Assembly: GCA_963736005.1 (NCBI GenBank)
Contig: CAVTNB010000002.1
Location: 1 to 64,000, forward strand
DNA length: 64,000 nt
From: an uncultured Pseudomonadota bacterium
Lineage (GTDB): Bacteria; Vulcanimicrobiota; Vulcanimicrobiia; Eremiobacterales; Eremiobacteraceae
Direction: 5' to 3'
Below, piece after piece: positions 1-25,341 of the stretch. Position 1 is the first letter of the stretch; each line of letters starts with the position of its first letter. The position numbers and the translations under genes are program-made. The notes beneath the pieces are model-generated. The model was not told the origin of the DNA and did no database searches. It saw only the letters and a list, made by a program, of their open reading frames with translations.

Positions 1-806
1 TTGACCAAAATGTTCGCGCTCGTCAGGCCTCCGGATGGACTTGTAAACGTTACGTTTGATTGGAACTTCTGCGCCTGATACGTCGGTCCAGCCGGCGTTT
101 GCACCGGTACAAAGGTTGCGATGAAATTGTCGAGCGTGAGGTGCACGTTTGCCGGGGCGACGGCAACCGTTTCGCCTTTGAAAATAACAATCTGGCCCGA
201 AAAGCCACGCAGCCAGCCGAGAAAAACGCCGAAGGCGATAACCGTGAAACCCAAGTGCGCGACCAGCACCCCGTAACGCGCCCATTTCTGCTTGTCACCG
301 AACAACCAGTGCGCGCCGTCGATGATTTGGCTGCGGAGCGTGAAGCCTTTGGAACGCAAGTATGCCGCAACGGCATCATTCGCGCCTGCTGTTGCGCTCG
401 CAGCGTTCATGGTCGCGTGCAGGCCAAAGTTGCGAATGGGAACGGCGCGATCTTTTGGAAAGCGCTTCGGGATGACGCGGCGGAAGGTGCACACCGACAT
501 CGAGAGCAGCAATAAGATCACGAGCGAAATATACGGCACTGAGTGGAAAACGTTCGTAAGGTGAAGACGAACAATCGCGTTGGCGATGGGCATTGGATAA
601 AAATCGTAGTAGTGCTGCTCCGGTTGATTTTGATCGACGATCGTGCCGATCGTGGTGGCGACGGCCCAGAGGAGGAAGACGACCACCGGAAACATGACGT
701 TGCTGAGCAAATTGAGGATCTCTTCGAGCAAAGGCTGGCTCGAAGAAGTCTTCGTCGGACTCGGCTTTTGGCGTGGTTGCAGAGCGTGTGCGGGAGCGGA
801 ACTCAC
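1..806 (-). CDS. resB: Cytochrome c biogenesis protein ResB/Ccs1 (partial, runs off window start)
   Basis: Manual minus-strand translation from GTG 806, not in the ORF track: ...VVFLLWAVATTIGTIVDQNQP...RLHLTNVFHSVPYISLVILLLLSMSVCTFRR...KWARYGVLVAHLGF. This TM and His pattern is typical of ResB/CcsB. Confidence 0.8.
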   Translation of the reverse strand, partial: MSSAPAHALQPRQKPSPTKTSSSQPLLEEILNLLSNVMFPVVVFLLWAVATTIGTIVDQNQPEQHYYDFYPMPIANAIVRLHLTNVFHSVPYISLVILLLLSMSVCTFRRVIPKRFPKDRAVPIRNFGLHATMNAASATAGANDAVAAYLRSKGFTLRSQIIDGAHWLFGDKQKWARYGVLVAHLGFTVIAFGVFLGWLRGFSGQIVIFKGETVAVAPANVHLTLDNFIATFVPVQTPAGPTYQAQKFQSNVTFTSPSGGLTSANILV

Positions 807-876
807 CAGTTCGGCCTTCTCGCCGCCAAAAAGGCTCTCCTACGCCGAGGGCGACTCCCGCGACATCGCGAGCGGT

Positions 877-1650
877 TTAGCGCGGTGAGATCTTTGGCTG
901 AGTAAAACGCACTACCACCACGCTTAAGGCATACAGCACGAGCAGCGGAGCGGCCAACAGCGTCATCGTCAGCGGATTGCCATCCGGCGCCGCAATGGCT
1001 GCAAGGATAACGATAATCATCGTTGCGTAGCGCCACTGTTTGGCAAGCATGCGCGCATTGACCAAACCGACGCTTGCCAGAATTGAAAGCACGATTGGGA
1101 GCTGAAACATGACCGCGAACACGGCTAAGAGGACCGTAATGAAACCGATGGTCGGCTCCAACTGATACGTGCCAACCAAACCTGAAGCTGCCGTCAATCG
1201 GAGCAGCGCCCGCATGACCAGTGGCAGCACAAAGAATCCGCAAAACGCAATGCCAAGGCCAGACATCGCAAAACTCGGGAGTGCGTACCACACGATGCGG
1301 GTGCGGACGCGACGATCGAGAGCTGGCGCGACGAATGCGTACGCTTGCACGAGGATGATAGGAAACGCAACCACGAGACCAACGAGCAGCGAAAGCTTGA
1401 GGTAGACGCGGATGATCTCGGTCGGCGAAAAGACGTGAAGGGTGATACCGTGCAAGAAGTCGCTCTCGACAAAGGTCAGGACCCAGCCATTGAGCATGAA
1501 GGGAAGCGCGACGATGGAAATGATGGCGATGGACGCGATCGAGATGAGCAGCCGGGTGCGCAGCTCCGCCAGATGCTCGGTGAAGGTCATCTCGACGTCG
1601 TCGGAGGCTGGTCGTGCCGCAGCCGGCACCTCAGCCGTTTGCGTCGACAT
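877..1650 (-). CDS. tatC: Twin-arginine translocase subunit TatC
   Basis: MTFTEHLAELRTRL, FSPTE, FQLP, APDG motifs; multiple TM helices; adjacent to tatA. Confidence 0.95.
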   Translation of the reverse strand: MSTQTAEVPAAARPASDDVEMTFTEHLAELRTRLLISIASIAIISIVALPFMLNGWVLTFVESDFLHGITLHVFSPTEIIRVYLKLSLLVGLVVAFPIILVQAYAFVAPALDRRVRTRIVWYALPSFAMSGLGIAFCGFFVLPLVMRALLRLTAASGLVGTYQLEPTIGFITVLLAVFAVMFQLPIVLSILASVGLVNARMLAKQWRYATMIIVILAAIAAPDGNPLTMTLLAAPLLVLYALSVVVVRFTQPKISPR

Positions 1651-1668
1651 CGATCCGGACGAAGTCCT

Positions 1669-1905
1669 TTAAGACTGCGCGGCGGGGGGTGGCGGTGCCG
1701 GTGGGGTTTGCGGTGCGCTCGTGTCAGCGGGGGGAGCGGCTGGAGGTTGCGCGGACTGCCCGCGTTGCGCCGCCTCGAATTCCTTTTTTGCTTCGCCCAT
1801 CGAGCGCGCGAGTTTTGGAATTCGGTCTGCACCAAACAATAAGATAGCAATGCCCACGACGATGGCAATCTCCGGACCTGTGATAATCGCGAAAATCGGG
1901 CTCAT
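1669..1905 (-). CDS. tatA: Twin-arginine translocase TatA/TatE subunit
   Basis: GPEIAIVVGIAILLFGADRIPKLARSMG...EF signature followed by a Pro-rich tail. Confidence 0.93.
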   Translation of the reverse strand: MSPIFAIITGPEIAIVVGIAILLFGADRIPKLARSMGEAKKEFEAAQRGQSAQPPAAPPADTSAPQTPPAPPPPAAQS

Positions 1906-1970
1906 GAAGGATGGAGCTCCTTTCGGCTTCTTTCTCGTGTATCGGCGGATTCCGACGCTGCCATGCCGAT

Positions 1971-2981
1971 TTAGGATGAGTATTCGCTAAGCGTGTGCGT
2001 CAGCGCTTGTAGTTCGGCGGTTGCTTCCGAGGCGGGAAGTTGGTCGAGTGCGGCTCGCGCGTGCTGCTCGAACTGTGCCGCAACACGCTTGGTTTGCGCC
2101 ACCGCAATGCTCGCGCGCAGGTACGCAATGAGCGTGCTCAGCGCCGCGCGCGCACCCTCGGCGTCATCCCGACCATCGTAAGCGAAGAACCGGGCAGCGC
2201 ACTCGCGCACGGCCGCGTCGCCGGACTCCAATGCCGCGATGAGCGGAAGCGTTACCTTGTGCTCGCGCAGATCAGACCCGGCCGGCTTGCCGATCGCGGC
2301 TTCGCTGGCAATGACATCAAGCAAGTCGTCTCGCACCTGGAAGGCCATGCCGAAGGCCCAGCCATACGCGCGCAACGCTTTGACGACCGGATGCTCCCGC
2401 ATGTGGGGACCGACTTTTCCAGTCGTGCGCTGCAGTGCGACGATGGAGCCTACTTCAGCACAGGATGCGAAAAGCTCGGCCGTCTTCTTTCCAATGATTT
2501 CGAAATACTGATCGCGGCTAAGCGCGAGGTTCCCCGTGGCGCGAAGCTGTTTGACTTCGCCGTTACAAATCTCCGACAGCATCGTCGCGAGAATCGTCGG
2601 CACCGGATTCTCGTATCCTTGGGTGATCTTCTTAAAAACCCAAGCGAAGAGATAATCCCCCGCGAGCACGGAAAACCGGTTGCCGTGGACCCTATTGGTC
2701 GAATCGCGACCACGCCGGAGATTCGCGTTGTCGACGACGTCATCGTGAATGAGCGTCGCAACATGAATGAGCTCCATATAGGATGCGAGGATTGGGTCGG
2801 GAGCGATGTCATCACTTGTGGATCGGGCGGCAAGCATCGTCATGCGAGGACGCAGCTCTTTGCCTCCTGCGTCGAGCATTGCCCAAACCGCGCCCGCAAT
2901 CTGCGCGTTCTCGTGCGAGAGCTCTTCCCGGACGAACTGTTCGACGACGCCGCGAATGGCGCTCTGCGCTCCGATAATCAT
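1971..2981 (-). CDS. Polyprenyl diphosphate synthase (HepT/IspB-like)
   Basis: GGKELRP, LIHDDVVD..RRG (FARM), GKKTA, FQVRDDLLD (SARM). Confidence 0.92.
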   Translation of the reverse strand: MIIGAQSAIRGVVEQFVREELSHENAQIAGAVWAMLDAGGKELRPRMTMLAARSTSDDIAPDPILASYMELIHVATLIHDDVVDNANLRRGRDSTNRVHGNRFSVLAGDYLFAWVFKKITQGYENPVPTILATMLSEICNGEVKQLRATGNLALSRDQYFEIIGKKTAELFASCAEVGSIVALQRTTGKVGPHMREHPVVKALRAYGWAFGMAFQVRDDLLDVIASEAAIGKPAGSDLREHKVTLPLIAALESGDAAVRECAARFFAYDGRDDAEGARAALSTLIAYLRASIAVAQTKRVAAQFEQHARAALDQLPASEATAELQALTHTLSEYSS

Positions 2982-3711
2982 GTGCTCGACGTCGCATATT
3001 GCGGCACGATCGCGGACGCACGCGCACCTTCGGTCGCTCCGAGGTGCAGGTTTGCAACGCCCCCGAAAAGCGGCACGCAGCGGACATGGCCGAAGCCGTT
3101 TTCCTTAAAGAGCGTGGCGAGGGTTCGCGCGTCAGGAAAGTTGATGAGCGATTGGGGCAGATACCGGTAGGCCGCGCGGTCGCCGCCAACCAAGCCTCCT
3201 ACAAAAGGGATCACGCCATAGAAATACGCATAAAACGCGCGCCGCAATAAGCCGTTGTCCGGTTTTCCAACTTCAAGGTTGACAAACAGTCCGCCGGGTT
3301 TTAAGACTCGGGTGATCTCGCGCAGGCACGCGGCGATGTCGGTAACGTTGCGCATGGAAAACGCCATAGCTGCAGCATCGAAGGTTCGATCTGCAAACGG
3401 CAGCGAAAGCGCATCCGCCCGCTCGTAGGTGATGTTTCGTGGTTTGTCATGCGTGCGCGCGACCGCGAGCATATTTTCGCTGAAGTCGATGCCGAAACGT
3501 GACCGTCCTGGGCTGCCCGCGCGAGCTCGCGCGTGAGCGCGCCCGTTCCGCAGCAGAGATCGAGCACTCGAGCGTCGATTGGCAACGCAAGGCTTGCGAC
3601 GGCCTGCTTGCGCCAGAGCGCATCGGTGCCGCCCGTCATCACGCTATTTGCAAGATCGTACCGCCTCGCGATCTTGTCAAACATGTCGCGAACCGCGCTG
3701 CCTTTATCCAT
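2978..3711 (-). CDS. menG: Demethylmenaquinone methyltransferase MenG/UbiE, frameshifted near 3490
   Basis: N-half VRDMFDKIARRYDLAN...LDLCCGTG (3301..3711). C-half DALSLPF...MRNV...RVLKPGG...AYRYL (2978..3472). Confidence 0.88.
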
Positions 3712-3818
3712 GTGCGTTTGGCTGGCTTCGAACGCCTGAAAACGCTTTCCTGGAATCGTGCGCCGCAGGTGCGACGTTGCTCTTGACGCTGCGGCACTTT
3801 GGCGTGAGCTTCTACGAC

Positions 3819-4733
3819 ATGGATCAGCTGCAAATTGCGGTCGGCAGCGCGGCTCGCACGGTGCTCTGCGATGCCTTTGCCCATGCCCGTTCGAGCATCG
3901 ATGCCGAGTTCTTTAGTATCTCCGATCCGTCAATTATCGCAAGTCTCAACGATGCAGCGGCGCGCAAGGTTCACGTGCGTCTCCATGTTGAGGCGCATCC
4001 GGACCGCTACCAAAAGCGTAGTGGTCGGGCTCAGGCAGCCGACCATGTCAAATCGAGCAAGTCGATCGCCGAAACGCTCCGTCGTGAGTTTGCAAGCGAC
4101 GTCGATATCGTGCTGGAGGATCATCCGGACGAGCTCATGCACGCCAAGGCGGCAGTGGTTGATGAAACGACCGCCTATGTCTCGACTGCAAACCCAACGT
4201 GGTCCAGCTTCGCCAATCCAGGCGAAGCCGTTGTAACCGATGCGCTGGCTTCCGATGTCAAAGCCGTGCAGGCCGCAATCGAGCACCAGCCGCGACCTTC
4301 TTCTCAGTACGTCGTCATCGGGCCATCGCAAACTCTGCGAGAGCAGGTCATGGAATTGTTTCATTCCCAACACGACCTGCGCATCGCCTCCGAGGATCTT
4401 TCCGATCGGTTGGTGGTCGACCAGCTCTTGGAACGCCAAGCGCTCGGACATCACGATCGCATTTTAGTTGGCGACCGCTCGAGTGCGGCGCAAAAGCGAT
4501 CCGTCACGTGGTTACGGCACGCCGGCGTGCAAGTGCGATCGATAGCTTCCGGTTACATGCATGAGAAGTATGTTGACACAGGGGACGAGCTGTATGTCGG
4601 CTCGGCCAACCTCACCCGCAACGGATTGGATGAGGCCCATGAAGTTGGCGTGGTCGCGCCGACTGCAGCATTGCCAGGGGGAGCGCAAACCCTGCGCGAC
4701 GATTTCGATGCGAACTGGTCGCGCGCCGTGTAG
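3819..4733 (+). CDS. Phospholipase D-like (two HKD motifs) protein
   Basis: HAKAAVVD..STAN and HEKYVDTGD..VGSANL..EVG motifs; probable start ATG 3819. Confidence 0.8.
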   Translation: MDQLQIAVGSAARTVLCDAFAHARSSIDAEFFSISDPSIIASLNDAAARKVHVRLHVEAHPDRYQKRSGRAQAADHVKSSKSIAETLRREFASDVDIVLEDHPDELMHAKAAVVDETTAYVSTANPTWSSFANPGEAVVTDALASDVKAVQAAIEHQPRPSSQYVVIGPSQTLREQVMELFHSQHDLRIASEDLSDRLVVDQLLERQALGHHDRILVGDRSSAAQKRSVTWLRHAGVQVRSIASGYMHEKYVDTGDELYVGSANLTRNGLDEAHEVGVVAPTAALPGGAQTLRDDFDANWSRAV

Positions 4734-4829
4734 TCGCGCGAATTTATTCGCGCGTGCGCTCGTGATGTAGTCGCGCGAATTTATTCGCGCGTGCGCCCGT
4801 GATGTAGTCGCGCGAATTTATTCGCGCGA
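4729..4829 (+). repeat. Tandem REP-like palindromes, 3 copies with 37-bp period: TGTAGTCGCGCGAATTTATTCGCGCG
   Basis: Copies start at 4729, 4766 and 4803. Each is GTAG followed by the stem CGCGCGAAT-TT-ATTCGCGCG, lying between convergent genes. Confidence 0.88.
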
Positions 4830-5609
4830 GCGCAACGTCAGCTTCGGGAACAGCTTTTCCGCATTTGCCGTCGTCGCCGCCGCGACCTCATCTGGAGTGG
4901 TTGCGCGAAGAGCGGCCACGGCTTCACAGGTGAGCCTCATGTATGCTGGCTCGTTTCTCTTGCCTCGATAGGGAACCGGCGCCATATACGGGCAGTCGGT
5001 TTCGAGCACAAGGCGGTCGAGCGGCAATCGCGCGACCGCATCTTGCAAATCGGTCGCCTTGCGGAACGTGACCGCTCCACCAATTCCCAAAAACACGTCG
5101 CACTCATCGATAAACTTTTTTGCAATATCGTAGGACTCGGTAAAGCAGTGAATCACACAGGGTGAGGCAGGCTTCCGATGCGCGCGCAACAGCGTCATGA
5201 CGTCCTCAGTCGCCTCGCGGCAATGGATGATGACCGGCAGGCTGCGCGCCCCGGCAAGTTCCAACTGGGTCGCAAATATCTCGCGTTGCACGTCGCGAGG
5301 CGAAAAGTCGTAGTGGTAGTCGAGACCCATCTCACCCGCGGCAACCACTCGCGGATCATCAAGCATTGGGCCAAGCCAAGCCAGATCTCCAGCATCTTTA
5401 GCTAGGTGCGGATGGACCCCGACAGCCGGCGCTATCTGCGGAAACCTCGCGCTGAGCCCAAGTGTTGCGAAGCTTGTTGCCCTATCCTGACCAGCGGAAA
5501 CCATGCGTCGGACGCCCGCCTCGGTGGCCCGTTGCATTGCCGCTTCCAGGTCGTTTTGGTATTCTGAACCGTCTAAGTGCGCGTGCGTATCGACAAGGGC
5601 GAGCGTCAC
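4818..5609 (-). CDS. tatD: TatD family hydrolase/DNase
   Basis: DTHAHLD, GVHPH, GEMGLDY, IHCRE, IHCF, LETDCPY..P.RGKRNEP. Confidence 0.95.
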   Translation of the reverse strand: MTLALVDTHAHLDGSEYQNDLEAAMQRATEAGVRRMVSAGQDRATSFATLGLSARFPQIAPAVGVHPHLAKDAGDLAWLGPMLDDPRVVAAGEMGLDYHYDFSPRDVQREIFATQLELAGARSLPVIIHCREATEDVMTLLRAHRKPASPCVIHCFTESYDIAKKFIDECDVFLGIGGAVTFRKATDLQDAVARLPLDRLVLETDCPYMAPVPYRGKRNEPAYMRLTCEAVAALRATTPDEVAAATTANAEKLFPKLTLRSRE

Positions 5610-7144
5610 GCAACCCCTGTCTCGCGATCGAGCCTCGGGAAAAGCGCCGGGGGCACGCTCGTTTTAGTGTCTGGTGCGAGCCCTCCCCAGCGCAACGTCT
5701 TTTCCCATGGCTCGCCCGGAACGCCGGTTTGGCCGAGCGCGTCCCAGACCGCTTCGCTGGAGTTGGGCATAAACGGGTACACCATCGCCGCGATCCAGCG
5801 TACACCCTCGCACAAATTGTAGAGCGTCTCATCGAGCGCGGCAGCATCGCCCTCTTTGGCGGCCGTCCATGGCTTGGACTGTTCGACGTAGAGATTGAGC
5901 GACGTCACGCGATCCCAGATGGCCGTCAGCGCGCCGCGAAAATCGATTTGAAGCAGGGCATCCTTCGCGGCCTGTGCTGCGTTCTCGAACTCAACGTTCA
6001 ATTCGTCGCCCGCGGTCTTTGCTGGCACTCTGCCGTTGCGGTAACGGGCGAGCATCGAGAGCACGCGCTGCACCAGATTCCCGAAGTCATTCGCAAGTTC
6101 TGCATTATACCGTCGCAAGAGCGACTCTTCGCTAAAACTGAAATCGACGCCGAAGGGTGCCTGGGCAAAAAGCACGTACCGCACCCCATCGACCGTGTAG
6201 CGTTCGATGAGGTCAGACGGCCGGATGATGTTGCCAACGCTCTTGCTGATCTTCTGACCCTCCATGGTTATCCAGCCGTTGGCGTACACGAGTTTTGGCA
6301 ACGGGAGGTCAAGCGCGATCAGGATTGCCGGCCAAATGATCGTGTGAAAACGCAAAATTTCTTTCCCGATGAGCTGTACGTCGGCAGGCCACAAGCGCTC
6401 GAAGCGCGGCATGTCGTGCGGGTAGCCTGCCGCCGTGATGTAGTTGCAGATGGCGTCGAACCAGACGTAGATCGTCTTTGACTCGCCCGGTATGGGGATG
6501 CCCCATGTCACGGCCGCCCGAGAGACGCACAAGTCTTCGAGGCCGCCGCGCAAGAGCGATGCCATCTCATTCCAAGCGCTCGCCGGACGCACCCACTCGG
6601 GAAATGCATTGAAGTGATCGACCAGGATATCGCGGTATTGCGAAAGTCTAAAGAACCAGGCATCTTCGGAAACCCATTCGACTTCGCGGCGGCACTCGGG
6701 ATTCGGGCAGCGGCCATCGATGAGCTTGCTCTCTGGCCAAAACGTCTCATCGTTGCGGCAGTACCAGCCCTCGTATTTTCCGGGAACGATGTCACCTTGG
6801 TCGCGCAACTTGAGAAAAATGTGTTGCACGGCCGCTTCATGCTCCGGGTCGGTGGTTCGAATGAATTGATCGTACGAAATATCCAGCTCGCGCCAAGCGC
6901 TTTTCCAGCGTTCGACGATTTCATCGGCGAATTGCTTCGGTGCCTTTCCGGCGGCGGCAGCGGCATCAGCCACCTTGGGACCGTGTTCGTCGGTCCCCGT
7001 CAGAAAGTGCGCTTTGCCGTTCCCGGTGACGCGGTGAAAGCGAGCAAGAATGTCGGCCGCGATCGTGCTATACGCGTGACCGATGTGCGGCGTGCTATTG
7101 GTGTAATACAAGGGTGTTGTCAGATAAAAAGTGTCTTTTGCCAT
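5606..7144 (-). CDS. metG: Methionine--tRNA ligase
   Basis: YLTTPLYY..PHIGH, TGTDEHG, zinc knuckle, YVWFDA, KISKS. Confidence 0.97.
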   Translation of the reverse strand: MAKDTFYLTTPLYYTNSTPHIGHAYSTIAADILARFHRVTGNGKAHFLTGTDEHGPKVADAAAAAGKAPKQFADEIVERWKSAWRELDISYDQFIRTTDPEHEAAVQHIFLKLRDQGDIVPGKYEGWYCRNDETFWPESKLIDGRCPNPECRREVEWVSEDAWFFRLSQYRDILVDHFNAFPEWVRPASAWNEMASLLRGGLEDLCVSRAAVTWGIPIPGESKTIYVWFDAICNYITAAGYPHDMPRFERLWPADVQLIGKEILRFHTIIWPAILIALDLPLPKLVYANGWITMEGQKISKSVGNIIRPSDLIERYTVDGVRYVLFAQAPFGVDFSFSEESLLRRYNAELANDFGNLVQRVLSMLARYRNGRVPAKTAGDELNVEFENAAQAAKDALLQIDFRGALTAIWDRVTSLNLYVEQSKPWTAAKEGDAAALDETLYNLCEGVRWIAAMVYPFMPNSSEAVWDALGQTGVPGEPWEKTLRWGGLAPDTKTSVPPALFPRLDRETGVA

Positions 7145-7222
7145 GCAATTTATATTTTGTTTGGAGTCCCAAGGGAAGCCTGCTTAGGAACACGACGTCG
7201 TCGCGCCAATTCGTTCGTGCGT

Positions 7223-8053
7223 CTACGTGCGGCCGCGTTTGAGCGCGAGTCGATAGAGTTCGTTGCGCGAGGCCCCCGTTGCAAGCCGAATCGCTTGTGC
7301 GGCATCTCTGGCGCTGACGCCAGACTGGCGCAGGAATGCAAGCGCCGCCTCAAGGTTGCCCGTTCTTGCAACTGGCAGCTCTTTTTGGCCCTCGAGCACG
7401 AGCGTAAATTCCCCGCGGGGCGGGGACGCGAGCTGCAACGCTACTTCACTCGCCGTGCCCAGCAGATGCTCTTCAAACTTCTTGGTATACTCGCGCACGA
7501 CGAAGACGCGCCGCTCCGGCAGAACTGCGGCTACCGCGCGCAAGAGATCGAGAACCCTCGTTGGCGCCTCGAACCAGACAACCGCGGCTCGTTCGCTGAC
7601 AAGCCGCTCGAGGTACCCGCGCAGCTCGCCGGGCTTTCGTGGGGGAAAGCCATCGAAGCGAAAGTTCCCTTCGTCAAATCCGGAGAGCACGACAGCAGAC
7701 GGCACTGCACTCGGCCCAGGCAATACCTCAACCGGAGCGGCAAGCTTGCGGGCTTCGCGCACGAGCTCGACCCCTGGATCGGAAATGCCTGGCATGCCAG
7801 CATCGCTGACCACCACGACCGTCTTGCCGCTGCTCAGCAGCGCCTGTAGTTCGCGCAACCTCGCGCGCGCCGTTCGTTCGTGGAACGAGCGCAATGGTGT
7901 GTGAATGTCGTAGTGGCGAAGCAAGGTCTTCGTGACGCGGGTGTCCTCGGCAAAAATGACATCGCTTTCGCGCAAGACGCGCAAGCTGCGCAGTGTGACG
8001 TCTTCAAGATTACCAAGCGGCGTCGGACAGATGACGAGTTTACCGGTCATCAT
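7223..8053 (-). CDS. rsmI: 16S rRNA (cytidine1402-2'-O)-methyltransferase
   Basis: PTPLGNLEDVTLR, AEDTR, SDAGMPGISDPG, REYTKKFEE, RGEF; conserved rsmI-metG-tatD order. Confidence 0.95.
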   Translation of the reverse strand: MMTGKLVICPTPLGNLEDVTLRSLRVLRESDVIFAEDTRVTKTLLRHYDIHTPLRSFHERTARARLRELQALLSSGKTVVVVSDAGMPGISDPGVELVREARKLAAPVEVLPGPSAVPSAVVLSGFDEGNFRFDGFPPRKPGELRGYLERLVSERAAVVWFEAPTRVLDLLRAVAAVLPERRVFVVREYTKKFEEHLLGTASEVALQLASPPRGEFTLVLEGQKELPVARTGNLEAALAFLRQSGVSARDAAQAIRLATGASRNELYRLALKRGRT

Positions 8054-10124: not shown

Positions 10125-10964
10125 CTACAGGGCCGTTGCGGCGTGATACTTGCGGCGAATCTCCCGCAAATCAACAGTCGGTTTGGGAATCTCGATCTTC
10201 ATGTCGCTCATCGTCTCAACGAGGATCTTTGAAATTGCCAGATGGCAGAACCACTTGTGGTTTGCGGGAATGATGAACCACGGCGCGTGCTCGGTGCTCG
10301 TCTCGCACAACATCTCCTCGAAGGCCTCGATGTACGCGCCCCAATACTCCCGCTCCGTATAGTCTGCTTCGCTGATCTTCCAGTTGTGAGATGGGTCGTC
10401 GAGGCGCTTGGCAAACCGCGCCAATTGTTCTTCTTTCGAAATATGAAGAAAGAACTTGAGGATCGTCGTGTTGTTATCGCGATACAGGAGTCGTTCGAAG
10501 TCATTGATTTCCCCGTAGCGCTCTTTCCATTGCTTTTTTGGCACAAGCTTGTGCACTCGGACGGCGAGCACGTCCTCATAGTGCGAGCGGTTGAACACCG
10601 CAACCATTCCCTTGGCGGGAGCTCGGGGATGCACGCGCCACAAAAAGTCGTGGTCGAGCTCTTCCTCCGTTGGCGGCTTGAAGCCTAAAACGGTACACCC
10701 TTGGGGGTTCATGCCGGTGATCACATGACGAATCACTCCGTCTTTACCTGCGGAATCTAGCCCCTGCAGGACGATGAGCAGTGAATGCTTTTTTTGCGCC
10801 CACATGTGCAGCTGAAGTTTGTCGATCTTCTCAAGCTCGCGAGAGAGGTCGCGCAGCGCTTCTTTCTTGGACGAATATGAGCCATGAAAACCGGGGCTCA
10901 CGCCTTTGAGCTTGATCTTCTTGCCCGGCGCGGCCATGAATTGCTTGGTGTAGGTTCGTGCCAT
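10125..10964 (-). CDS. ppk2: Polyphosphate kinase 2 family (polyphosphate:nucleotide phosphotransferase)
   Basis: LQGLDSAGKDG Walker A, FKPPT.EE.DHDFLWR, FNRSHYEDV, KFFLHISKEEQ, APWFIIPANHKW. Confidence 0.93.
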   Translation of the reverse strand: MARTYTKQFMAAPGKKIKLKGVSPGFHGSYSSKKEALRDLSRELEKIDKLQLHMWAQKKHSLLIVLQGLDSAGKDGVIRHVITGMNPQGCTVLGFKPPTEEELDHDFLWRVHPRAPAKGMVAVFNRSHYEDVLAVRVHKLVPKKQWKERYGEINDFERLLYRDNNTTILKFFLHISKEEQLARFAKRLDDPSHNWKISEADYTEREYWGAYIEAFEEMLCETSTEHAPWFIIPANHKWFCHLAISKILVETMSDMKIEIPKPTVDLREIRRKYHAATAL

Positions 10965-11119
10965 CAGGTGCCTCTTGCACGCCGTCGGCAAGCTTACCGC
11001 CCTTCGAATGCAAGTTCGATTTCGCTCGGTCTGGTTGCCAGCTGGATTTCGGCACGAAAGCAATCGGTGGCGGTTGGCCGAACGTTCCACAGGTTTTCTG
11101 ACGCTGGAGGGCTTTTGTT

Positions 11120-11374
11120 ATGCCGGCAAAGAGTACTATTTTTTGCAACTACATAGTAAGACTGCATGTCGACTCGGACGAGCTGGAGCGTTACAAGAAA
11201 CATCCCGATGAACGCATACACCAGGCTGGCTTGACACCCAAGCAAGGTATGGCGCTGAAGAATAAAAGCGTCGCCGAGATTGAAGCTGCGCTGTGCGAGG
11301 AACAGGGCTTGCCGCCCGGGAGCAAGCCAGACAAAGACCACGTCGTGACGACGCACTTGGTAGAGCAACTCTAA
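11120..11374 (+). CDS. Putative split-borosin precursor peptide (BBD/LigA-like helical leader + C-terminal core)
   Basis: GGAGG RBS upstream. The leader L..D.D.LERYK.HP......AGLT..Q..AL resembles borosin binding domains. C-terminal core-like HVVTTHLVEQL. Directly upstream of the borosin methyltransferase. Confidence 0.8.
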   Translation: MPAKSTIFCNYIVRLHVDSDELERYKKHPDERIHQAGLTPKQGMALKNKSVAEIEAALCEEQGLPPGSKPDKDHVVTTHLVEQL

Positions 11375-12156
11375 CGTCCAGCGGCTCTCTCACTGTCGTC
11401 GGAGCGGGAATTCAGTTCGCGTGTCAGACGTCGCCGGCCGCGCGTGACTGCATCAAGCGTGCCGACAAAGTACTCATCATTTCAGCACCGTCTGCGGTCA
11501 CATGGCTGAAACAACTCAATAAATCAGCAGAGTCGCTCAATCATCTTTACGCCCCCGGAAAGCAGCGCATCACGACGTATCGTGAAATGGTTGAGTGTAT
11601 CATGAATTGCGTGCGTCGTGGCCAAAATGTGTGCGTTGTAACGTATGGTCATCCCGGCGTCTTCTCGCATCCGACACACGAGGCGGTCAGGAAGGCGCGC
11701 AGCGAGGGGTTCCTAGCCACGATGCTGCCCGGTATTTCCGCGGAGGATTGTCTATTTGCGGACCTTGGAGTCGACCCCGGAGCGCATGGGTGTCAAAGCT
11801 TCGAAGCTACTGACTTTCTCATTCGTGGGCGCCGATTCGACCCGACCAGTACGCTGATATTGTGGCAAATCGGGGTGATCGGGGAACCCGGCATCGGCAC
11901 GACGCGGGTAACACAGAGTTTGCGCATACTCGCGGACGTTCTAGGTCGACACTATGACGCCAACCACGAATCGATCGTCTACGAAGCTGCCGAACACCCC
12001 TTTTGCGAACCCTCGATACAGCCCGTAACGCTTGCCATGCTGCCCGACGCTCGGGTCTCGACGAGGTCCACGCTCTACGTGCCACCCAAGAAGTCTCGGC
12101 CTCTTGACGAAGAAATGGTGCAACGTTTGGGAATCGAGTTCCCCAGGCGCAAGTAG
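11374..12156 (+). CDS. Borosin-type backbone alpha-N-methyltransferase (OphMA/SonM family, TP_methylase fold); start codon uncertain
   Basis: GSLTVVGAGI, LY..GK.R..TY.EMVE, YGHPGVF, MLPGISAEDCLFADLGVDP, GCQSFEATDFL, LILWQIG, YEAA, STLYVPP. Confidence 0.92.
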   Translation, partial: TSSGSLTVVGAGIQFACQTSPAARDCIKRADKVLIISAPSAVTWLKQLNKSAESLNHLYAPGKQRITTYREMVECIMNCVRRGQNVCVVTYGHPGVFSHPTHEAVRKARSEGFLATMLPGISAEDCLFADLGVDPGAHGCQSFEATDFLIRGRRFDPTSTLILWQIGVIGEPGIGTTRVTQSLRILADVLGRHYDANHESIVYEAAEHPFCEPSIQPVTLAMLPDARVSTRSTLYVPPKKSRPLDEEMVQRLGIEFPRRK

Positions 12157-12194
12157 TCGCGAACGTCGAATCAACCCAGCGATAGGGGTGCATC

Positions 12195-15002
12195 ATGATC
12201 TCCCAGGAGATTCGTTGCCGTACCTTCATCGGGCGTCGCGCGCAGCTCGATCTGCTGTTGCGTGCCCGCGCCGCTTCAGCCGCGGAGTCTGGGAAAATGG
12301 TGCTGATCGCCGGCGACGCGGGAAGCGGCAAGAGTCGCCTCGTCACCCAATTCTTTGACGGCATCTCGCCCAGCGAAATGCCGCGCGCGGTGGGCCACTG
12401 TCTCGAATATGCCCAATCGCCTTTCGCTCCGATCGTGGAAGCATTGCGCGGAGTACTGGACGAGCGAGGCGCGCCGCGTCTGAGCCAAGAGGTCCGCGAG
12501 CCTCTGGCATGGCTGCTGCCCGAACTCCGCGTGAGTAATGAGCGCGTCATCGAGCGCGACAAATTGCAACTGCTCAACGCCATGGCCGAGGCACTCCAAG
12601 AGGTGTCCTCAAAGAATTCCGCCACCGTCGTCATTGAAGACCTTCACTGGGCAGACGCTGCCACGCTCGAGTTCCTCCAGCACGTGTTGCATTCGCTTGC
12701 CAAATCCCGTCTGCTGCTCCTTGTGACCTACCGATCGGAGGAGGTGCATCACGGTCATCCGCTTTCATCCATACTCGCGCGGCTCGAACGGCACCCGTCA
12801 GTGTTGAGCATCGAACTCGAACCTCTTTCCAGTTCCGAAATGAACGCGCTGATCTACCATTCGCTCGAAGGGCGAGCAACGCTGCCCAGTGAGGTTGTCG
12901 GCGCCATCTCGTCGCAGGCAGAAGGTAACCCGCTTTTTGCCGAGGAGCTGCTGAGAAATGCGACCCAGAACGCAAGCGCGCTCAGGGCGCCCCTCCTGCC
13001 CCGCACGCTGCGTGAGGCGGTACTCGAGCGACTGAAAGTTCTGGGTAATGACGAGCGCGAACTGCTCGCCGAAGCCGCCGTCATGGGAAGGCGCTTTCGA
13101 GCTGAGTTCCTTGCCGCAGCCACCGGAACGCCCATAGAGCGGACACTGTCCGTCTTGCGCGCCGCGCGTGACCTTCAATTGATCGTCGAAGAGGTCAATG
13201 GAGTGAACTATTTCACGTTTCGTCACGCTCTAACGCGCGAAGCCATTTACGGAGAGCTGTTGGCTGCCGAAGCTCGCGTGCTGCACAGACGAAATGCCAT
13301 CGCGCTCGAAGCACCCGAGGCGTCGGATGAATCGACCGCCGAGCTCGCCTATCACTGGTGGAAGGCACGCGAGCCGGACAAGGCGGTGAAGTACAACGAA
13401 CTCGCAGGCGATCGGGCTTTTCGCGTCTACGCCTATCAAGACTGTTTAATCAACTACGAACGAGCTCTTGAAATGGATGCGCAGGGCGGAGCCCATCGAG
13501 CATCCTTGCAGCGAAAACTTGCCAAGGCATTGCATCAGTGCGGGTTGGGCATGCGTGCCTCGCTCGCGCTAGATGCCGCGTTGGAATACTACCTGTCGGC
13601 AGGCGACTTGGAAAACGCCGCATGGACCTGTTTGAGCCTAGGCCGAATTCGCAGCACGCTGGCGCACATTGCGGGCCAAGCTCAGATGAACGAGCGCGCT
13701 GTGACTCTTGTAGGCCAAAACGCCCTCAGCCCGGCGCTGTTCGCAGCACGCGTAGCGATGGCAAATGTCTACACGTCTTTTCATTGCGACTCGGCCAAGG
13801 CGCTGAACTATCTTGATAAAGCTCAGGAGCAGTTGGCGAACGCGAGGTCAAGAGACCAGGTGCGTTTTTTTGAGACGCGATCGATGGTGCGCATCCTCCA
13901 AGGCAGACCTCAAGAGGGACTCGACGACGCGCGACGAGCGACAGAGATTGCGGGTACGACGGGCGACGTGCACAGTGCCATACGCCTCTGGGGAAATGTC
14001 GCCGTAACTCTGACGGACTGCGGTGAAGGAGCGCTCGCGTTACACGCTTTCAAAGAAGCGGCTGACATCGTGCGCGATAAGCGCTTCGGCGGTGTGACGG
14101 GCAACTGGGTCATGGTAGAGTTCGCCTTCGCCCGTTTGCTGCATGGCGAACTCGAGCAAGCTCGGGAACTTGTCGAGCTTGGGTTGGCGGCGAATATCGA
14201 GAGTTTACGATTCAGAGTGCTTCTGGCACGGACGGGCATTTTGGTGGGGCTCATGCTTGAGAACAGCGAGCTCGTCCAACGCGCTGCCAAGCCGGAACTT
14301 ATCGAACTTGCAATCGGGGCTGGGGAATTGAAGATGGTCGAAATTTCGGCCGCATTGGCCGAGTACTACCAGTCGGTGGGGAACGTTGAGGCGGCCGCCA
14401 GCCTATTACACCGCCAGATCGAGGCTTGCGAGACGCTCGACCTCCATCCGCCGCCTGGGAGTACCGATTGGTTGCTTGCAACGGCGAAATACGGGGATGC
14501 TGCAGATATCCCGCGAGCAAGAATGTTCCTCGCTCGCGCCGCCGAGTCGACGAAGGTTCGCGCGATGCCAGCCTGCGTCGCGCTTTTCGATGCCTGTGCG
14601 GCCAGCAGAGCGGGGCTGCAAGCCGATACGCTTGCCAATGGTGCTCGGGCAGCGCTGCTCTTTCACGACATCGAATGGCCATATCACGAAGCCCAGGCAT
14701 CGGAGCTGGCGGACAAGCCCAAGGACGCGCTGGAGATCTATAAGCGCATCGGGGACGTTCGCGATGCGCGGCGCTTGGAGGCGGCCCTGAATCCGCCGAA
14801 TCGGCGCGGTCGTTCGAAAAACGCGCTTACGTCGCGCGAACGCGAAATTTCAGACCTCGTCGGCAACGGGATGTCGAATCGCGTCATTGCCGATACCCTG
14901 GTCATCAGCGAACGCACAGTTGAAAGTCACGTGTCGGCGATCTTGAACAAGCTAAACTTAGCCTCACGCGCTGAGTTGATCGCGCACTTGAAGCAAAACT
15001 AA
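12195..15002 (+). CDS. Large AAA-ATPase (STAND/LAL-like) transcriptional regulator with helical repeats and C-terminal LuxR HTH
   Basis: FIGR..QL, Walker A GDAGSGKS, Walker B IEDLHWAD, GNPLF, FRHAL.REAIY, C-terminal LTSREREI...GMSNR.IA..L.ISERTVESHV. Confidence 0.93.
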   Translation: MISQEIRCRTFIGRRAQLDLLLRARAASAAESGKMVLIAGDAGSGKSRLVTQFFDGISPSEMPRAVGHCLEYAQSPFAPIVEALRGVLDERGAPRLSQEVREPLAWLLPELRVSNERVIERDKLQLLNAMAEALQEVSSKNSATVVIEDLHWADAATLEFLQHVLHSLAKSRLLLLVTYRSEEVHHGHPLSSILARLERHPSVLSIELEPLSSSEMNALIYHSLEGRATLPSEVVGAISSQAEGNPLFAEELLRNATQNASALRAPLLPRTLREAVLERLKVLGNDERELLAEAAVMGRRFRAEFLAAATGTPIERTLSVLRAARDLQLIVEEVNGVNYFTFRHALTREAIYGELLAAEARVLHRRNAIALEAPEASDESTAELAYHWWKAREPDKAVKYNELAGDRAFRVYAYQDCLINYERALEMDAQGGAHRASLQRKLAKALHQCGLGMRASLALDAALEYYLSAGDLENAAWTCLSLGRIRSTLAHIAGQAQMNERAVTLVGQNALSPALFAARVAMANVYTSFHCDSAKALNYLDKAQEQLANARSRDQVRFFETRSMVRILQGRPQEGLDDARRATEIAGTTGDVHSAIRLWGNVAVTLTDCGEGALALHAFKEAADIVRDKRFGGVTGNWVMVEFAFARLLHGELEQARELVELGLAANIESLRFRVLLARTGILVGLMLENSELVQRAAKPELIELAIGAGELKMVEISAALAEYYQSVGNVEAAASLLHRQIEACETLDLHPPPGSTDWLLATAKYGDAADIPRARMFLARAAESTKVRAMPACVALFDACAASRAGLQADTLANGARAALLFHDIEWPYHEAQASELADKPKDALEIYKRIGDVRDARRLEAALNPPNRRGRSKNALTSREREISDLVGNGMSNRVIADTLVISERTVESHVSAILNKLNLASRAELIAHLKQN

Positions 15003-15063
15003 AAGCCTCCTCCACGCCCTTTGCCGGGCGTTCCCGGCCAATTCTCCGTACTACGAGCAGCCT

Positions 15064-15087
15064 TAAATCCGTACTAGCACGGATTTA
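15064..15087. promoter_or_regulatory. Inverted repeat TAAATCCGT-N6-ACGGATTTA, candidate LuxR-family operator
   Basis: Perfect 9-bp arms plus a further TCCGTACTA half-site at about 15045, lying between the regulator and the small ORFs. Confidence 0.5.
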
Positions 15088-15167
15088 GGAGAGCATGTGC
15101 CTCGCGTATGATCAGCCTTGGAAGCGGTCGCGCTTAGACGGCCCTCCAAACCAAAAGGAGAACCACG

Positions 15168-15296
15168 ATGGAAGCCAAGGCAAAACAGTATACGAAAGAC
15201 GTCGAAGAGCAAAACGACGGTGACCGAAATCGACTCGTCCGCGTTCCCAAGTTCGTCGATTCTTCGATCTTCGGGGGTTGGGGGATCAAGCTCTAA
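15168..15296 (+). CDS. Small ORF, 42 aa: MEAKAKQYTKDVEEQNDGDRNRLVRVPKFVDSSIFGGWGIKL
   Basis: Strong RBS AAAAGGAG 7 nt before the ATG; below the ORF-track size cutoff. Confidence 0.6.
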   Translation: MEAKAKQYTKDVEEQNDGDRNRLVRVPKFVDSSIFGGWGIKL

Positions 15297-15310
15297 TCAG
15301 GAGAAACCCC

Positions 15311-15421
15311 ATGAACGTCTACGACAAAGACCTTGCTGGCGCAAACGCCGCGAGGTCTTTCTCATTGATGCCGCAGGGAGATATCCATTACGTTGATAAG
15401 GCCGACGCCGATGAACGTTGA
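15311..15421 (+). CDS. Small ORF, 36 aa: MNVYDKDLAGANAARSFSLMPQGDIHYVDKADADER
   Basis: RBS AGGAG upstream; its 3' end overlaps the start of the next gene. Confidence 0.45.
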   Translation: MNVYDKDLAGANAARSFSLMPQGDIHYVDKADADER

Positions 15422-21746: not shown

Positions 21747-22998
21747 ATGATGCGCATATTCCTGGTCAACGATCGCTGGGGTGCAGATGGCGGAAGTGAA
21801 GTCGTCCTCTCCAGTCTGATCACCGCATTACGAGATCGCGGGCCATACGCTTCGGCTGTGCGTTTCAAGCATTGCCGACGACGCTCCGCGATTGCCGGCG
21901 GATGTGGAAATCGCTCACGTTCCCTGGCGAGGGATCCGCGAAGCGAGCGATCCGCGCAGCGGCGATCTCGTGCATCAAGCTGCAGCCGCTTTTCAACCCG
22001 ATGTCGTGTACGCTCACAACGTTTTTGATCACTCTGTCGTGCATCGCTTGCAATCGTGGCCCTTCGTTTGGCACAACCACGATCATCGCGTTCATTGTCT
22101 GAACGGAAACCGGCGCTACCGGCGCAGCGGCACTATCTGTTCATCCCCGCTCGGCTCGGCATGCGTCGTCCACGCCGTGACCGAACACTGCGGCGACGGC
22201 CCGAACCGCCGCACGCTCGAGCTCCTCCGATTGCGAAAGACACTACTGCGGGCCCTTCGAGGGTCCGAAGGCATCGTCGTCTTCGGTGAGTATCTCAAGA
22301 GCATCTTGCAAGCGAACGGGTTTGCCCCCGATCGCATTCTCGTTGTTCCTCCCGCTCATTCGGTATTGGGATGTTGGCGAGCAGCCCGCCTATCCGCCGG
22401 CCCGCGAGGGACGCGCACAGTTGTCTTTGCAGGCCGCCTCATCCGCGACAAGGGTGTTGACGACGTCCTTTGGCTTGGGCGCAAGATGATCGAGTCAGGT
22501 TTGAACGCGCGCGTCGTGGTCGTGGCGGGTAACGGACAGCTTCGCTCGCTTGTGATTGACGCGGCGCAGCGCCCGGATTCTGGAATCGAATATCGCGGTG
22601 AATGCTCCGCTGGCGCGATCTCTCGCAGCTCTTGCGCGAGGCTTCGGTCATCGTCGTGCCCAGCCGTTGGCCCGAGCCTTTCGGCTTAGCGGGTCCCGAA
22701 GCGCTCCTGCATGGCCGGCCGGTCGTTGCCTACCGCGTCGGCGGGATCGCAGACTGGCTCGTCGATGGCGTCAACGGTTTCACCGTCCAGTGCGGCGATC
22801 GAGCAGCGCTTTTCGAGGCCGTGCGCACGCTCTTGGAAACTCCTGCGCGGCGGCTGCGATGGGCGGAGAGGAGCGACCATGGCGCGCGAACGTTATGCGC
22901 CGGCCGCGTCACTCGAAGCTCTTGAACATTTCTTGGCGAGGGCGATCTCGCGATTTGAGGTCGACCGCGCGCGAGCACCGCTCCGACGCGTGCGCTGA
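21747..22998 (+). CDS. Glycosyltransferase family 4, frameshifted
   Basis: MRIFLVND..GGSE, PDVVYAHN, FAGRL..DKG, VPSRWPEPFGL...EA...PVVAYRVGGI. Confidence 0.82.
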
Positions 22999-23002
22999 CG
23001 AG

Positions 23003-24254
23003 ATGATCAGAACCCTCGTCGTAACACCGACCATCGTCTATCCACCGATGAGCGGAGCGCCACTGCGCAGCTGGCAACATATCAATATCCTGGCGCAGCT
23101 CGGGCCGGTCGGCATGTTTTCGGTCGGCACCGAAGCGCACGCCGGTCAAGTCCCCCCACAACTCTCCTTTTGGACTCATTATCTGCTCGATCCGAATCGA
23201 CCCGCGAGCGCTGCGCAACAGCCTGCTGCGCCTCACGCGGCCGCCGCGGTGGTGGGTGTATCCGCATTTTCATTCGCTTGTGACCCCTGGGGCGATCGCC
23301 AGCCTTCAGAACATCCTCGATACGTTCCAGCCCGATGTGGCGATTCTAGATCGCGCGCAGCTCTACGGATACGTACCCATGCTTTGCGACAACGCTATTC
23401 CGGTTATTTGGGATACACACAACATTCAATCGTCGCTCGTCGCTGAAATGAAATCCGCGCTCGGAATTCGATCATCTCTGCTGTCTGCGTATGGCGCTTC
23501 AGAGCCTGCGTAAACTCGAACGCGGGCTGAGCGCGCAGGCCGCACAGGTATGGGTGTGCAGCGATGAGGATGCGCGAGGCTAGCGCGCGTGTGCGCCCGC
23601 AGTTCGGATGTTCGGGTCATCCCTAATGCGATCGACCTCGCATTCTATGCAAGCGTTGCGTGAAGGCATCGAACAATGCGTCGACGCCACCGCGACGGGC
23701 CGCATGTACTTTTTGTCGGCGTTCTTTCGTACGAACCCAATCGAATCGCGGGCGAGTTTCTTTTGGAAAAGATCCATCCAATGCTTCGTTCGATACTGCC
23801 GCACGCTCGCTGCACTATCGTCGGACGTAGCCCCAGCCGAAGCATGTTGGATGCAGCGCTCCGCGATTCATCAATAACTCTGGCGGGAGCAGTCGAGGAT
23901 GTCCGGCCTTATCTCGCCGCGGCGGATGTCGTCGTCGTACCGCTCATGCAAGGTGGGGGCACCCGGCTGAAGATTCTGGAAGCGTTTGCGGCTCAACGTC
24001 CCGTGGTGAGCACGACGAAGGGTAACGAAGGTCTGCGAGCACGCTCCGGCGAGCACTTGTTGCTGGCCGACGATCCGCAGTCTATAGTTGCTGCGATCGC
24101 CCGGCTCTGGCTCGATGCGCCACTGCGCGAGTCGCTGACGCAAGCGGCTTATGCCCTCGTGGCTGACGAGTACTCGTGGTCTGCGGTGAGCGATGCTGTT
24201 GCGAAGTGCTGTCGAGCATGCGTAGCAGATTCGGCACGCAAACTCGATGCGTAA
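23003..24254 (+). CDS. Glycosyltransferase family 4, frameshifted
   Basis: YPPMSGAPLR, DTHNI, LFVGVLSYEPN, VPLMQGGGTRLKILEAFAA.RPVVST. Confidence 0.85.
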
Positions 24255-25341
24255 GAACTCGGCCACGCTTTCGGGTGGCGCAGCTTTTCTCGTGGGGCGC
24301 TGACAACCCGTATCAGGAACTGCTCGCCGCGCGTTAGCGCAGCATGAGATTCAGATCGACCAGCTTCAACCCCGACCCTTTCTGTTACCGAGTTTGTTTC
24401 GCGGCGGGCGCCGGCCGGATGTCATTCACGTCCAATCTGCCATCCCGTACTTTCGCGCTCGCAGCCTGACGATGGCGAGCCTCAAGGTGCTCGCTTTCGT
24501 TGCGCAACTGTGGGCAATGCGGCTTTTTGGCGCGAAGATCGTGTGGACGGCTCACGACACGACAAAGCTTGGAGTGCGGTTCCCGCGCCAGGCCAGGCGC
24601 ATGGGCTTGGCCTTGGCCCGGATGTCACATGCGATCATCGTGCACTGTCCGGCTGCGGTACAGGAACTCGCGATTCAGTTTGGCATTGACAACCACGCCA
24701 AGCTGCGCGTTATTCCACACGGCAACTATGTGGGCGCTTATGCGGACAGCATTTCGCCGACGGAGGCACGTGCGAAGCTCGGACTGGCGTCCGAGAAGCT
24801 CGTGCTTTTGTGTTTGGGTTTGTTGCACCCGTACAAGGGCATCGAGCGCCTGGTGAGTGCCCTTGAAAGCGCCGGCCCGAACGTTCACCTGGTGATCGCC
24901 GGCAAGCCTATCTCCAAGGAATACGCCGCCGAGCTTGGGGACGCGTTGCGCACACGAGCAACGTGACGTACTCCCCGAAGTTTGTGGCTGCTCGATGACA
25001 TCCAAGTCTATATGCGTGCCGCCGATGCCGTCGTCTTCGCCTACCCAGAAATCCTTACCTCAGGCGCACTCGTGCTGGCTATGTCATTTGCCAAGGCCTG
25101 TGTTGCGCCAGCGATCGGGTGCATCCCGGAGATGCTCGATCCGCAGGGGGGTGATCATTTATGATGCGTCACGTCGCAGACGGTCTTGCTGCTGCGCTGC
25201 AGCAAGTGGTTCGCCAGCGCGATGAGCTTGCCAGTCATGGGTGCTCGCAATTTGGCACGGGTCAGGCAGTGGAGTTGGGAACGTGTTGCAGCGATGACGT
25301 TAGAGGTGTACCACTCCTGCGTGGCTGCGCGCGCCGTTTGA
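24247..25341 (+). CDS. Glycosyltransferase family 4, frameshifted
   Basis: DNPYQELL, IVWTAHD, IPHGNY, PYKGIE, ILTSGALVLAMSFAK; paralogue of 31180..32249. Confidence 0.82.

Follow-up and report, generated by a model that had tools for sequence, protein, structure and literature searches.

A two-gene locus at positions 11120-12156 of the window (the 64,000-nucleotide stretch of contig CAVTNB010000002.1 analyzed here) reads as a Type IV, SonM/SonA-like split borosin, with a precursor gene followed by the gene for a stand-alone methyltransferase. Borosins belong to the RiPPs, peptides made by ribosomes and modified after translation. From sequence comparison and structure models, we put the probability of this reading at about 0.88. 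Both partners are homologous to SonM and SonA, and the pairing of the two genes is conserved; binding of the precursor at this locus, its methylation and the sites of methylation are predicted by analogy. In that analogy, the enzyme, presumably dimeric, would dock the binding domain of the precursor, the C-terminal tail HVVTTHLVEQL would be threaded through the active site, and methylation dependent on S-adenosylmethionine (SAM) would fall on at least one backbone amide of the tail. The locus consists of the following elements; L001 is the orthologous locus of the closest relative, with shared synteny and 91% identity in the enzyme, and dN/dS is the ratio of nonsynonymous to synonymous substitution rates.

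11106..11111, + strand: Shine-Dalgarno-like GGAGGG, 8 nt upstream of the precursor ATG and identical in L001
11120..11374, + strand: borosin precursor gene, SonA-like, 84 aa, stop TAA at 11372-11374 (supported by orthologues and dN/dS)
11138..11302, + strand: borosin binding domain (BBD), residues 7-61 (supported by profiles against SonA and five predicted helices)
11303..11338, + strand: Pro/Gly-rich linker, residues 62-73 (QGLPPGSKPDKD), predicted disordered
11339..11371, + strand: putative core peptide HVVTTHLVEQL, residues 74-84, C-terminal to the BBD as in SonA
11383..12156, + strand: borosin alpha-N-methyltransferase, SonM-like, 257 aa of conserved domain plus stop (supported by PDB matches, Pfam and dN/dS)

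An earlier note, made from the letters of the DNA without database searches, had proposed the split-borosin architecture, and the searches uphold it. Both the 84-aa open reading frame (ORF; 11120..11374, +) and the frame ending at 12156 are real. Every string it quoted is present, namely YGHPGVF, PGISAEDCLFADLG, GCQSFEATDFL, LWQIG, YEAA and STLYVPP in the enzyme frame and YIVRLHVDSDELERYKKHPDERIHQAGLTPKQGMAL, GLPPGSKPDKD and HVVTTHLVEQL in the upstream ORF. The best matches of the enzyme are borosin enzymes, as the note expected, and the precursor carries the BBD by both profile and predicted fold. The note's description of an enzyme without a fused core also stands: the frame stops at 12156, and because the alignment to SonM extends to residue 257 of 263, there is no room for a C-terminal core or binding domain. 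The binding-domain profile matches the separate upstream ORF only, not the enzyme.

When the PDB was searched with the enzyme sequence, all 25 matches at E ≤ 1e-3 were borosin alpha-N-methyltransferases, with no other tetrapyrrole methylase among them. SonM came first (E 7.5e-56, 192.7 bits; query residues 31-281 against SonM 2-257 of 263), followed by OphMA (E 1.4e-52), dbOphMA (~1e-51) and MroMA (~1e-44). Pfam reports a single family for the enzyme, TP_methylase (PF00590, E 5.9e-17). The NCBIfam models that respond do so weakly: the YabN/MazG-type model gives 36.7 bits against a cut-off of 525, and the precorrin methylase models give ~18-20 bits against cut-offs of 93-391. No MazG domain was found in the enzyme.

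Mutagenesis, kinetics and structures have defined Y58, R67, Y71 and Y93 as the active-site set of SonM (PMC8429565). In the PDB alignment these residues correspond to Y56, R62, Y66 and Y88 of the window enzyme, numbered from the glycine encoded at 11383, and all four are invariant in the 10 sequences of alignment A2. The translation also contains VTYGHPGVF and SAEDCLFADLG, which carry the YGHPG and DCLFAD motifs of the borosin detection hidden Markov models YGHP_v3 and DCLFAD_v3 (Imani et al., preprint 10.1101/2021.12.24.474128); we judged these motifs from their text, by presence in the translation. Compared with L001, the enzyme is under purifying selection, with a dN/dS of 0.125 over 257 codons (dS 0.31), and the frame holds no internal stop or frameshift. 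We predict a SAM-dependent peptide-backbone alpha-N-methyltransferase.

For the 84-aa protein, single-sequence searches were uninformative, so profiles were needed. As a single sequence it matched no family in Pfam or NCBIfam, and a phmmer search of the PDB returned no SonA match, the sole match being an arsenate reductase at E 0.43. Among 5.8 billion proteins searched by word index, it had only two non-self relatives, both 84 aa long and 86% and 75% identical to the window precursor. With a profile of 11 upstream ORFs that included the window's own (A1), SonA was matched in the PDB at E 1e-9, together with weak matches to the clasp region of OphMA-type enzymes (residues ~322-375, E 0.03-0.15). 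A profile restricted to the four sequences of the clade (A3) gave seven PDB matches at E ≤ 1, all of them SonA, the best at E 0.003. When the clade was left out and the profile was built from eight other upstream ORFs, the 84-aa protein scored 31 bits, and the best among 2000 shuffled versions reached 7.8 bits.

The predicted fold points the same way. An AlphaFold2 model of the precursor (mean predicted local distance difference test score, pLDDT, of 73.7) has helices at residues 7-17, 19-27, 29-35, 40-47 and 51-61. A Foldseek search of the PDB with this model placed SonA chains at the top, with probability 1.00, a root-mean-square deviation of 1.3 Å over 50 columns and a target-normalised template modeling (TM) score of 0.83. 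A complex prediction run with two enzyme and two precursor alignment copies scored 0.88, and one unrelated control partner also reached 0.75; we count this result neither in favour of binding nor against it. The precursor ORF is under purifying selection: compared with L001, dN/dS is 0.21 over the whole ORF, 0.145 in the binding domain and 0.35 in the tail (dS of the pair 0.31-0.41). It is the sole match to the binding-domain profile in its own genome, where both genes are single-copy (2.84 Mb, 84% complete).

The pairing of the two genes extends well beyond this genome. We collected loci around enzyme relatives from a species-representative genome set, from metagenomes and from genomes related to the window's own. 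In nearly all of them, the gene directly upstream of the enzyme is a small ORF whose N-terminal part shows the same helical pattern and whose tail varies. The 45 records, less 6 duplicates and 1 without the enzyme N-terminus, gave 38 distinct junctions. In 30 of these a BBD ORF on the strand of the methyltransferase ends at most 150 nt upstream of it; in one (L018) the domain is fused to the enzyme, and the remaining seven have no BBD ORF there. The metagenome scan yielded no relative above 57% identity.

Several loci in this collection have arrangements of their own. In L018 (200-1126, +), a single open frame without a stop runs from the BBD directly into the methyltransferase N-terminus, and no core is obvious between the two. 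Two tandem BBD precursors lie upstream of one methyltransferase in L025 (20-548, +) and L026 (958-1486, +), and their tails differ (…AHLLMVLTEPGD versus …ITYIMFMVIFQPK[T/P]). L005, a metagenome-assembled genome (MAG) locus titled Thermoplasmata, has no BBD ORF upstream of its methyltransferase; small frames ending …GGMTYISLGRRLKISLGE and …GGMTYVSRGRGLTIPLG flank the enzyme at ~3579-3791 and ~4790-4900 (+), and could represent another type of precursor or a repeat. L048, L049 and L050 (genomes G007, G016 and G022, of one genus in the window's family) carry a diverged pair with a weak binding-domain match and a tail ending …FSYGPPRPNVWPGGTGGGE.

A locus of this kind is not rare, since Type IV is the commonest published borosin type. 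As laid out by Imani et al. (10.1101/2021.12.24.474128), Type IV combines a discrete methyltransferase of ~250-300 aa with a SonA-like precursor of 50-100 aa, whose five-helix binding domain docks the enzyme and whose core is C-terminal to that domain. The same preprint assigns 746 of 947 representative borosin enzymes to this type, and Lee et al. (preprint 10.1101/2024.01.09.574750) count 2,699 Type IV methyltransferases and 3,064 predicted precursors. Our search for enzyme homologues found 5,692 proteins at E ≤ 1e-40 among 6,673 candidates. Together with the published counts, this places the locus in a well-populated group, the most frequent borosin type in bacteria, whose predicted members number in the thousands.

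What sets the enzyme gene apart is its start. The earlier note had the enzyme begin at 11374, and this detail failed in the form given: codon 11374-11376 is ACG, not one of the canonical ATG, GTG or TTG. Two codons have to be considered.

11374..11376, + strand: ACG, proposed non-canonical enzyme start, sharing its A with the precursor TAA at 11372-11374 (TAACG)
11293..11295, + strand: GTG, sole canonical in-frame start, peculiar to the window, 82 nt inside the precursor ORF

The conserved N-terminus of the enzyme, GSLTVVGAG, starts at 11383, leaving 8 nt between the precursor stop and the first conserved enzyme residue. The GTG at 11293 is the sole ATG, GTG or TTG ahead of it in frame. We rejected this codon as the conserved start because its counterpart in L001 is not a start and is followed by a stop: in L001 a TAA closes the enzyme frame 48 nt upstream of GSLTVVG. 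The 48 open nucleotides of L001 contain no ATG, GTG or TTG and no other start of translation table 11, and the ACG in TAACG is the only near-cognate codon among them. Across the junction, the 35 nt at 11350-11384 are identical in the window and L001, and all differences between the two in the GSLTVVG codons are synonymous.

The junction is no assembly error. Contigs from two runs, 536 nt long in X1 and 151 nt long in X2, span it with 0 differences. Both are public soil runs of one study, and X1 may be the source sample of the window. A further run, X3, gave just two short partial matches of less than 95% likeness, which we disregarded. Among the runs listed as holding the region, none was an RNA run. 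RNA folding of 11340-11460 is no better than that of shuffles (z = +1.43), which lends no support to a structure controlling a restart or stimulating a frameshift. A scan of 10900-15400 returned no promoter-like sites and four terminator-like sites, compared with 5.0 expected.

By exclusion and by analogy, ACG 11374-11376 would be the likeliest start of the enzyme, reached by termination-reinitiation; we give this assignment roughly even odds. Ribosomes finishing the precursor ORF would restart at the ACG within TAACG, which would tie production of the enzyme to that of its substrate, probably at a low ratio. That the enzyme has no start site of its own, and is produced solely by ribosomes coming straight from termination on the precursor ORF, seems to us slightly less probable than its opposite.

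The relatives give this proposal its context: overlap of stop and start is the rule in the family. An in-frame NTGA stop/start overlap occurs at 11 of the 30 junctions with a BBD ORF:

ATGA: L041
GTGA: L033, L042
TTGA: L015, L043
CTGA: L004, L025, L026, L028, L029, L035

In the six CTGA loci, the CTG stands at offset -15, exactly where L041 has ATG and L042 has GTG, and five of the six have no ATG, GTG or TTG in the open enzyme frame. Two genomes from another genus of the window's family differ at the codon 3 nt ahead of the conserved motif, which is CTG in G007 and TTG in G016. Closer relatives have TAAGTG (G009) or a GTG 12 nt upstream (G003), and the called starts of proteins P0004 and P0006 lie 13 and 8 residues before the conserved motif. 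A restart on near-cognate codons, ACG in TAACG for the window and L001 and CTG in CTGA for the six loci, is a tentative reading whose chances we rate at just under one in two.

Some points weigh against an ACG restart. ACG is not a listed start in table 11, and the GTG at 11293 could serve as a start in the window itself. In Escherichia coli, ACG did give Met-initiated GFP, and it belongs to a codon group initiating at 0.1-1% of AUG, compared with 1-2% for CUG (preprint 10.1101/063800). A paper on reinitiation from non-canonical codons (PMC4648390) deals with expression in eukaryotic oocytes, and we set it aside.

The main rival to the ACG restart is a programmed -1 frame shift near the precursor stop, which would yield a single BBD-core-methyltransferase polypeptide, similar to type 0 borosins, beside the free precursor. 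The order of BBD, core and methyltransferase is indeed collinear with that of type 0 as described by Lee et al. (10.1101/2024.01.09.574750), the gap from the stop to the conserved enzyme is only those 8 nt, L001 offers no canonical start, and L018 is a natural stop-free fusion of BBD and methyltransferase. Even so, the last 13 codons, the only stretch in which the enzyme frame is open in L001, have no slippery heptamer, and the z-score of +1.43 for the RNA downstream of the junction indicates no stimulatory fold. The CTGA loci have a constant CTG but differ in the codon ahead of the stop (ACC, CCC, CTC, GCC); because of this variation, these loci share no common slip site. Moreover, the stop is kept in all three 84-aa orthologues, and the junction is confirmed in the X1 and X2 contigs. 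We consider a frame shift improbable, though no other rival fares better.

The linker of the precursor has no secondary structure in the AlphaFold2 model (pLDDT 57-62) and is the most variable stretch among orthologues; the model has a low-confidence helix at residues 72-82. By analogy with SonA, HVVTTHLVEQL would be the substrate region of the enzyme, and V/V/T/T/L within it are candidate methylation sites. A same-genus relative has KHVIVVNDTWQEK at the tail position.

Several observations tell against the borosin reading of the locus. For one, the tail is short and, with H, T, E and Q, fairly polar, and many relatives have very hydrophobic tails, such as VAIVAVVAAFVTR or YIMFMVIFQPKT. The tail of the window precursor also lies 17-23 residues past the last aligned BBD residue; the methylated residues of SonA, L63 and I65, lie 10-12 residues past theirs (PMC8429565). 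The Foldseek E-values of the precursor model are just 0.4-1, the domain being small. No peptidase or exporter was found within ~10 kb, and a released natural product is therefore not assured. Finally, the window assembly holds at least one frameshifted housekeeping gene, a ubiE/COQ5-type methyltransferase at 2978-3912 (-), whose N-terminal piece lies in frame 3301..3912 and C-terminal piece in frame 2978..3643. This split suggests an assembly indel or a pseudogene.

The unusual tail leaves a small probability, slightly below that of the frame shift, that the 84-aa protein is a BBD-only partner or adaptor, with the true substrate encoded elsewhere or being another protein. Such a division has a precedent, in that the BBD and core of the published types V-VIII reside on different proteins; in those types, however, the BBD is fused to the enzyme and not free (both points from Lee et al., 10.1101/2024.01.09.574750). 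In the tail, H74, T78, L80 and L84 are invariant in all four clade sequences, and its dN/dS of 0.35 is below 1. In addition, no second BBD ORF or methyltransferase was found in the 2.84-Mb, 84%-complete genome.

Alternatively, the enzyme gene might be decaying, its start codon lost and the locus an inactive relic. Such decay would fit the lack of a canonical start, close to the conserved N-terminus in the window and anywhere at all in L001, as well as other broken-looking genes in the window and the shortened public call. This call, P0005, is 184 aa long and begins at the internal Met at 11602 (11602-12156, +); it is without the first 73 residues of the conserved domain, including Y56, R62 and Y66, three of the four catalytic residues. 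P0007, 78% identical and 189 aa long, resembles a shortened call of the P0005 type on another contig. Looked up by exact match, neither the 287-aa enzyme (GTG start) nor the 189-aa version (L001 internal ATG) is in the protein collection. Selection argues otherwise. The enzyme's dN/dS of 0.125 (dS 0.31) is as low as those of its neighbours against L001, PPK2 (0.09) and a downstream regulator (0.144). Neither a stop nor a frameshift interrupts the gene, every catalytic residue is retained, and the codons just ahead of the first internal Met are conserved, with synonymous changes. We find a relic less plausible still than an adaptor.

The last rival, an ordinary tetrapyrrole or YabN-type methylase next to a small ORF by coincidence, is very remote: Pfam does give TP_methylase alone and NCBIfam adds weak YabN and precorrin matches, but these scores fall far under their cut-offs, all 25 PDB matches are borosin enzymes, and a BBD ORF is paired with the enzyme at 30 of 38 junctions.

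The expectation that automated pipelines would assign only generic names was borne out: relatives of the enzyme are called 'SAM-dependent methyltransferase', 'uncharacterized protein YabN...', 'precorrin-6B methylase 1', 'precorrin-3B methylase' or 'hypothetical protein', and none of the 120 listed carries a borosin label. The closest precursor relative, P0002, is nameless in the sources.

Around the borosin pair, the window contains the following genes.

12195..15002, + strand: LAL/STAND-type LuxR-family ATP-binding regulator, 935 aa (Pfam AAA_16 and GerE)
Upstream of the pair: TatC, ubiE-like, PLD, TatD, MetRS, RsmI-like TP_methylase, sodium:solute symporter, PPK2
Downstream of the regulator: class I methyltransferase, family-5 solute-binding protein, sulfotransferase, glycosyltransferase

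The gene directly downstream of the enzyme encodes a homologue of the regulator in L001, L044, L046, L007 and L008, which are published records from two phyla by record title, and also in L045, from the unpublished genome G008. Identity to the window's regulator is 49% in L044 (G009), 46% in L046 (G003) and 32% in L007 and L008. Given these downstream homologues in other loci, the LuxR-type protein is probably part of the borosin unit, as a pathway regulator. L001 is syntenic on both flanks and cannot delimit the cluster. The enzyme itself is patchily distributed, occurring in 15 of the 41 genomes searched (counting the window's own genome and the unpublished G008 and G013) and in 10 of 24 genomes of the window's family.

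L007 and L008 come from MAGs titled Vulcanimicrobiota/Vulcanimicrobiales, and in both the downstream regulator copy overlaps the 3' end of the methyltransferase. Two copies of the large LuxR-type regulator flank or follow each borosin pair: those of L007 are at 805-3591 and 4483-7536, and L008 has one at 4534-7539 and a second, partial tblastn match from ~7637. Elsewhere in the window, at 21892-24966 (+), glycosyltransferase ORFs lie in adjacent pieces (265+296 aa and 192+190 aa) with partial Pfam matches, which may be further frameshifts.

Among known systems, the closest is SonM/SonA of Shewanella oneidensis MR-1 (PDB 7LTC/7LTE; the Shewanellamide A pathway), a Type IV split borosin. The window enzyme shares with SonM a stand-alone methyltransferase of ~260 aa and the Tyr/Arg/Tyr/Tyr catalytic set. 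The precursor, like SonA, is separate and short, with an N-terminal five-helix BBD, predicted here, and a C-terminal core, putative here; in both systems the genes are adjacent and co-directional. In contrast, the window precursor is undetectable by single-sequence search from SonA, its linker is longer and Pro/Gly-rich, and its tail sequence HVVTTHLVEQL is different. The window's enzyme gene also differs in having no conserved canonical start and no peptidase found nearby. Where the window has a LuxR-type STAND regulator, the Shewanella cluster has a GGDEF gene, which Imani et al. describe as common in borosin clusters (10.1101/2021.12.24.474128).

Comparison with other members of the family is also informative. 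The type 0 fused borosins SkoAM and FpeAM, as presented by Lee et al. (10.1101/2024.01.09.574750), have the same N-to-C order of BBD, core and methyltransferase, and, as in the window, almost no spacer separates core and enzyme. Type 0 is one polypeptide, whereas the window's parts are split by a conserved TAA and a change of frame; the defining fusion of type 0 is thus absent. The fungal Type I enzymes OphMA, dbOphMA and MroMA have a homologous methyltransferase domain (E 1e-52 to 1e-44) and are ~400 aa long with a C-terminal BBD and core, whereas the window enzyme stops at the methyltransferase domain. YabN-like N-terminal TP-methylase domains, the outgroup in the preprint of Imani et al. 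(10.1101/2021.12.24.474128), belong to the same TP_methylase superfamily; unlike YabN, the window enzyme has the borosin motifs and a BBD partner and no MazG domain.

Three features are distinctive at this locus: a non-standard core, a conserved LuxR-type neighbour and the missing canonical start. Interest in backbone N-methylated peptides comes from their resistance to proteases and their membrane permeability, and each new enzyme-core pair widens the known substrate range. The core at this locus, HVVTTHLVEQL, stems from an uncultured soil lineage and exceeds the usual hydrophobic cores in polarity and His content. Because the enzyme gene has no canonical start and its public call is 184 aa long, genome mining based on called proteins may mis-size or mis-type such enzymes.

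If the restart at ACG is true, enzyme synthesis would depend on substrate synthesis and run well below it, and gene callers would systematically shorten or miss the catalytic N-terminus, as the 184-aa call does. The recurring stop/start overlaps, including those with CTG and ACG, suggest obligatory translational coupling in a RiPP operon and offer a simple, testable case of it. A bolder addition is that the STAND/LuxR regulator senses the methylated peptide; if so, the three genes would form a self-contained signalling unit.

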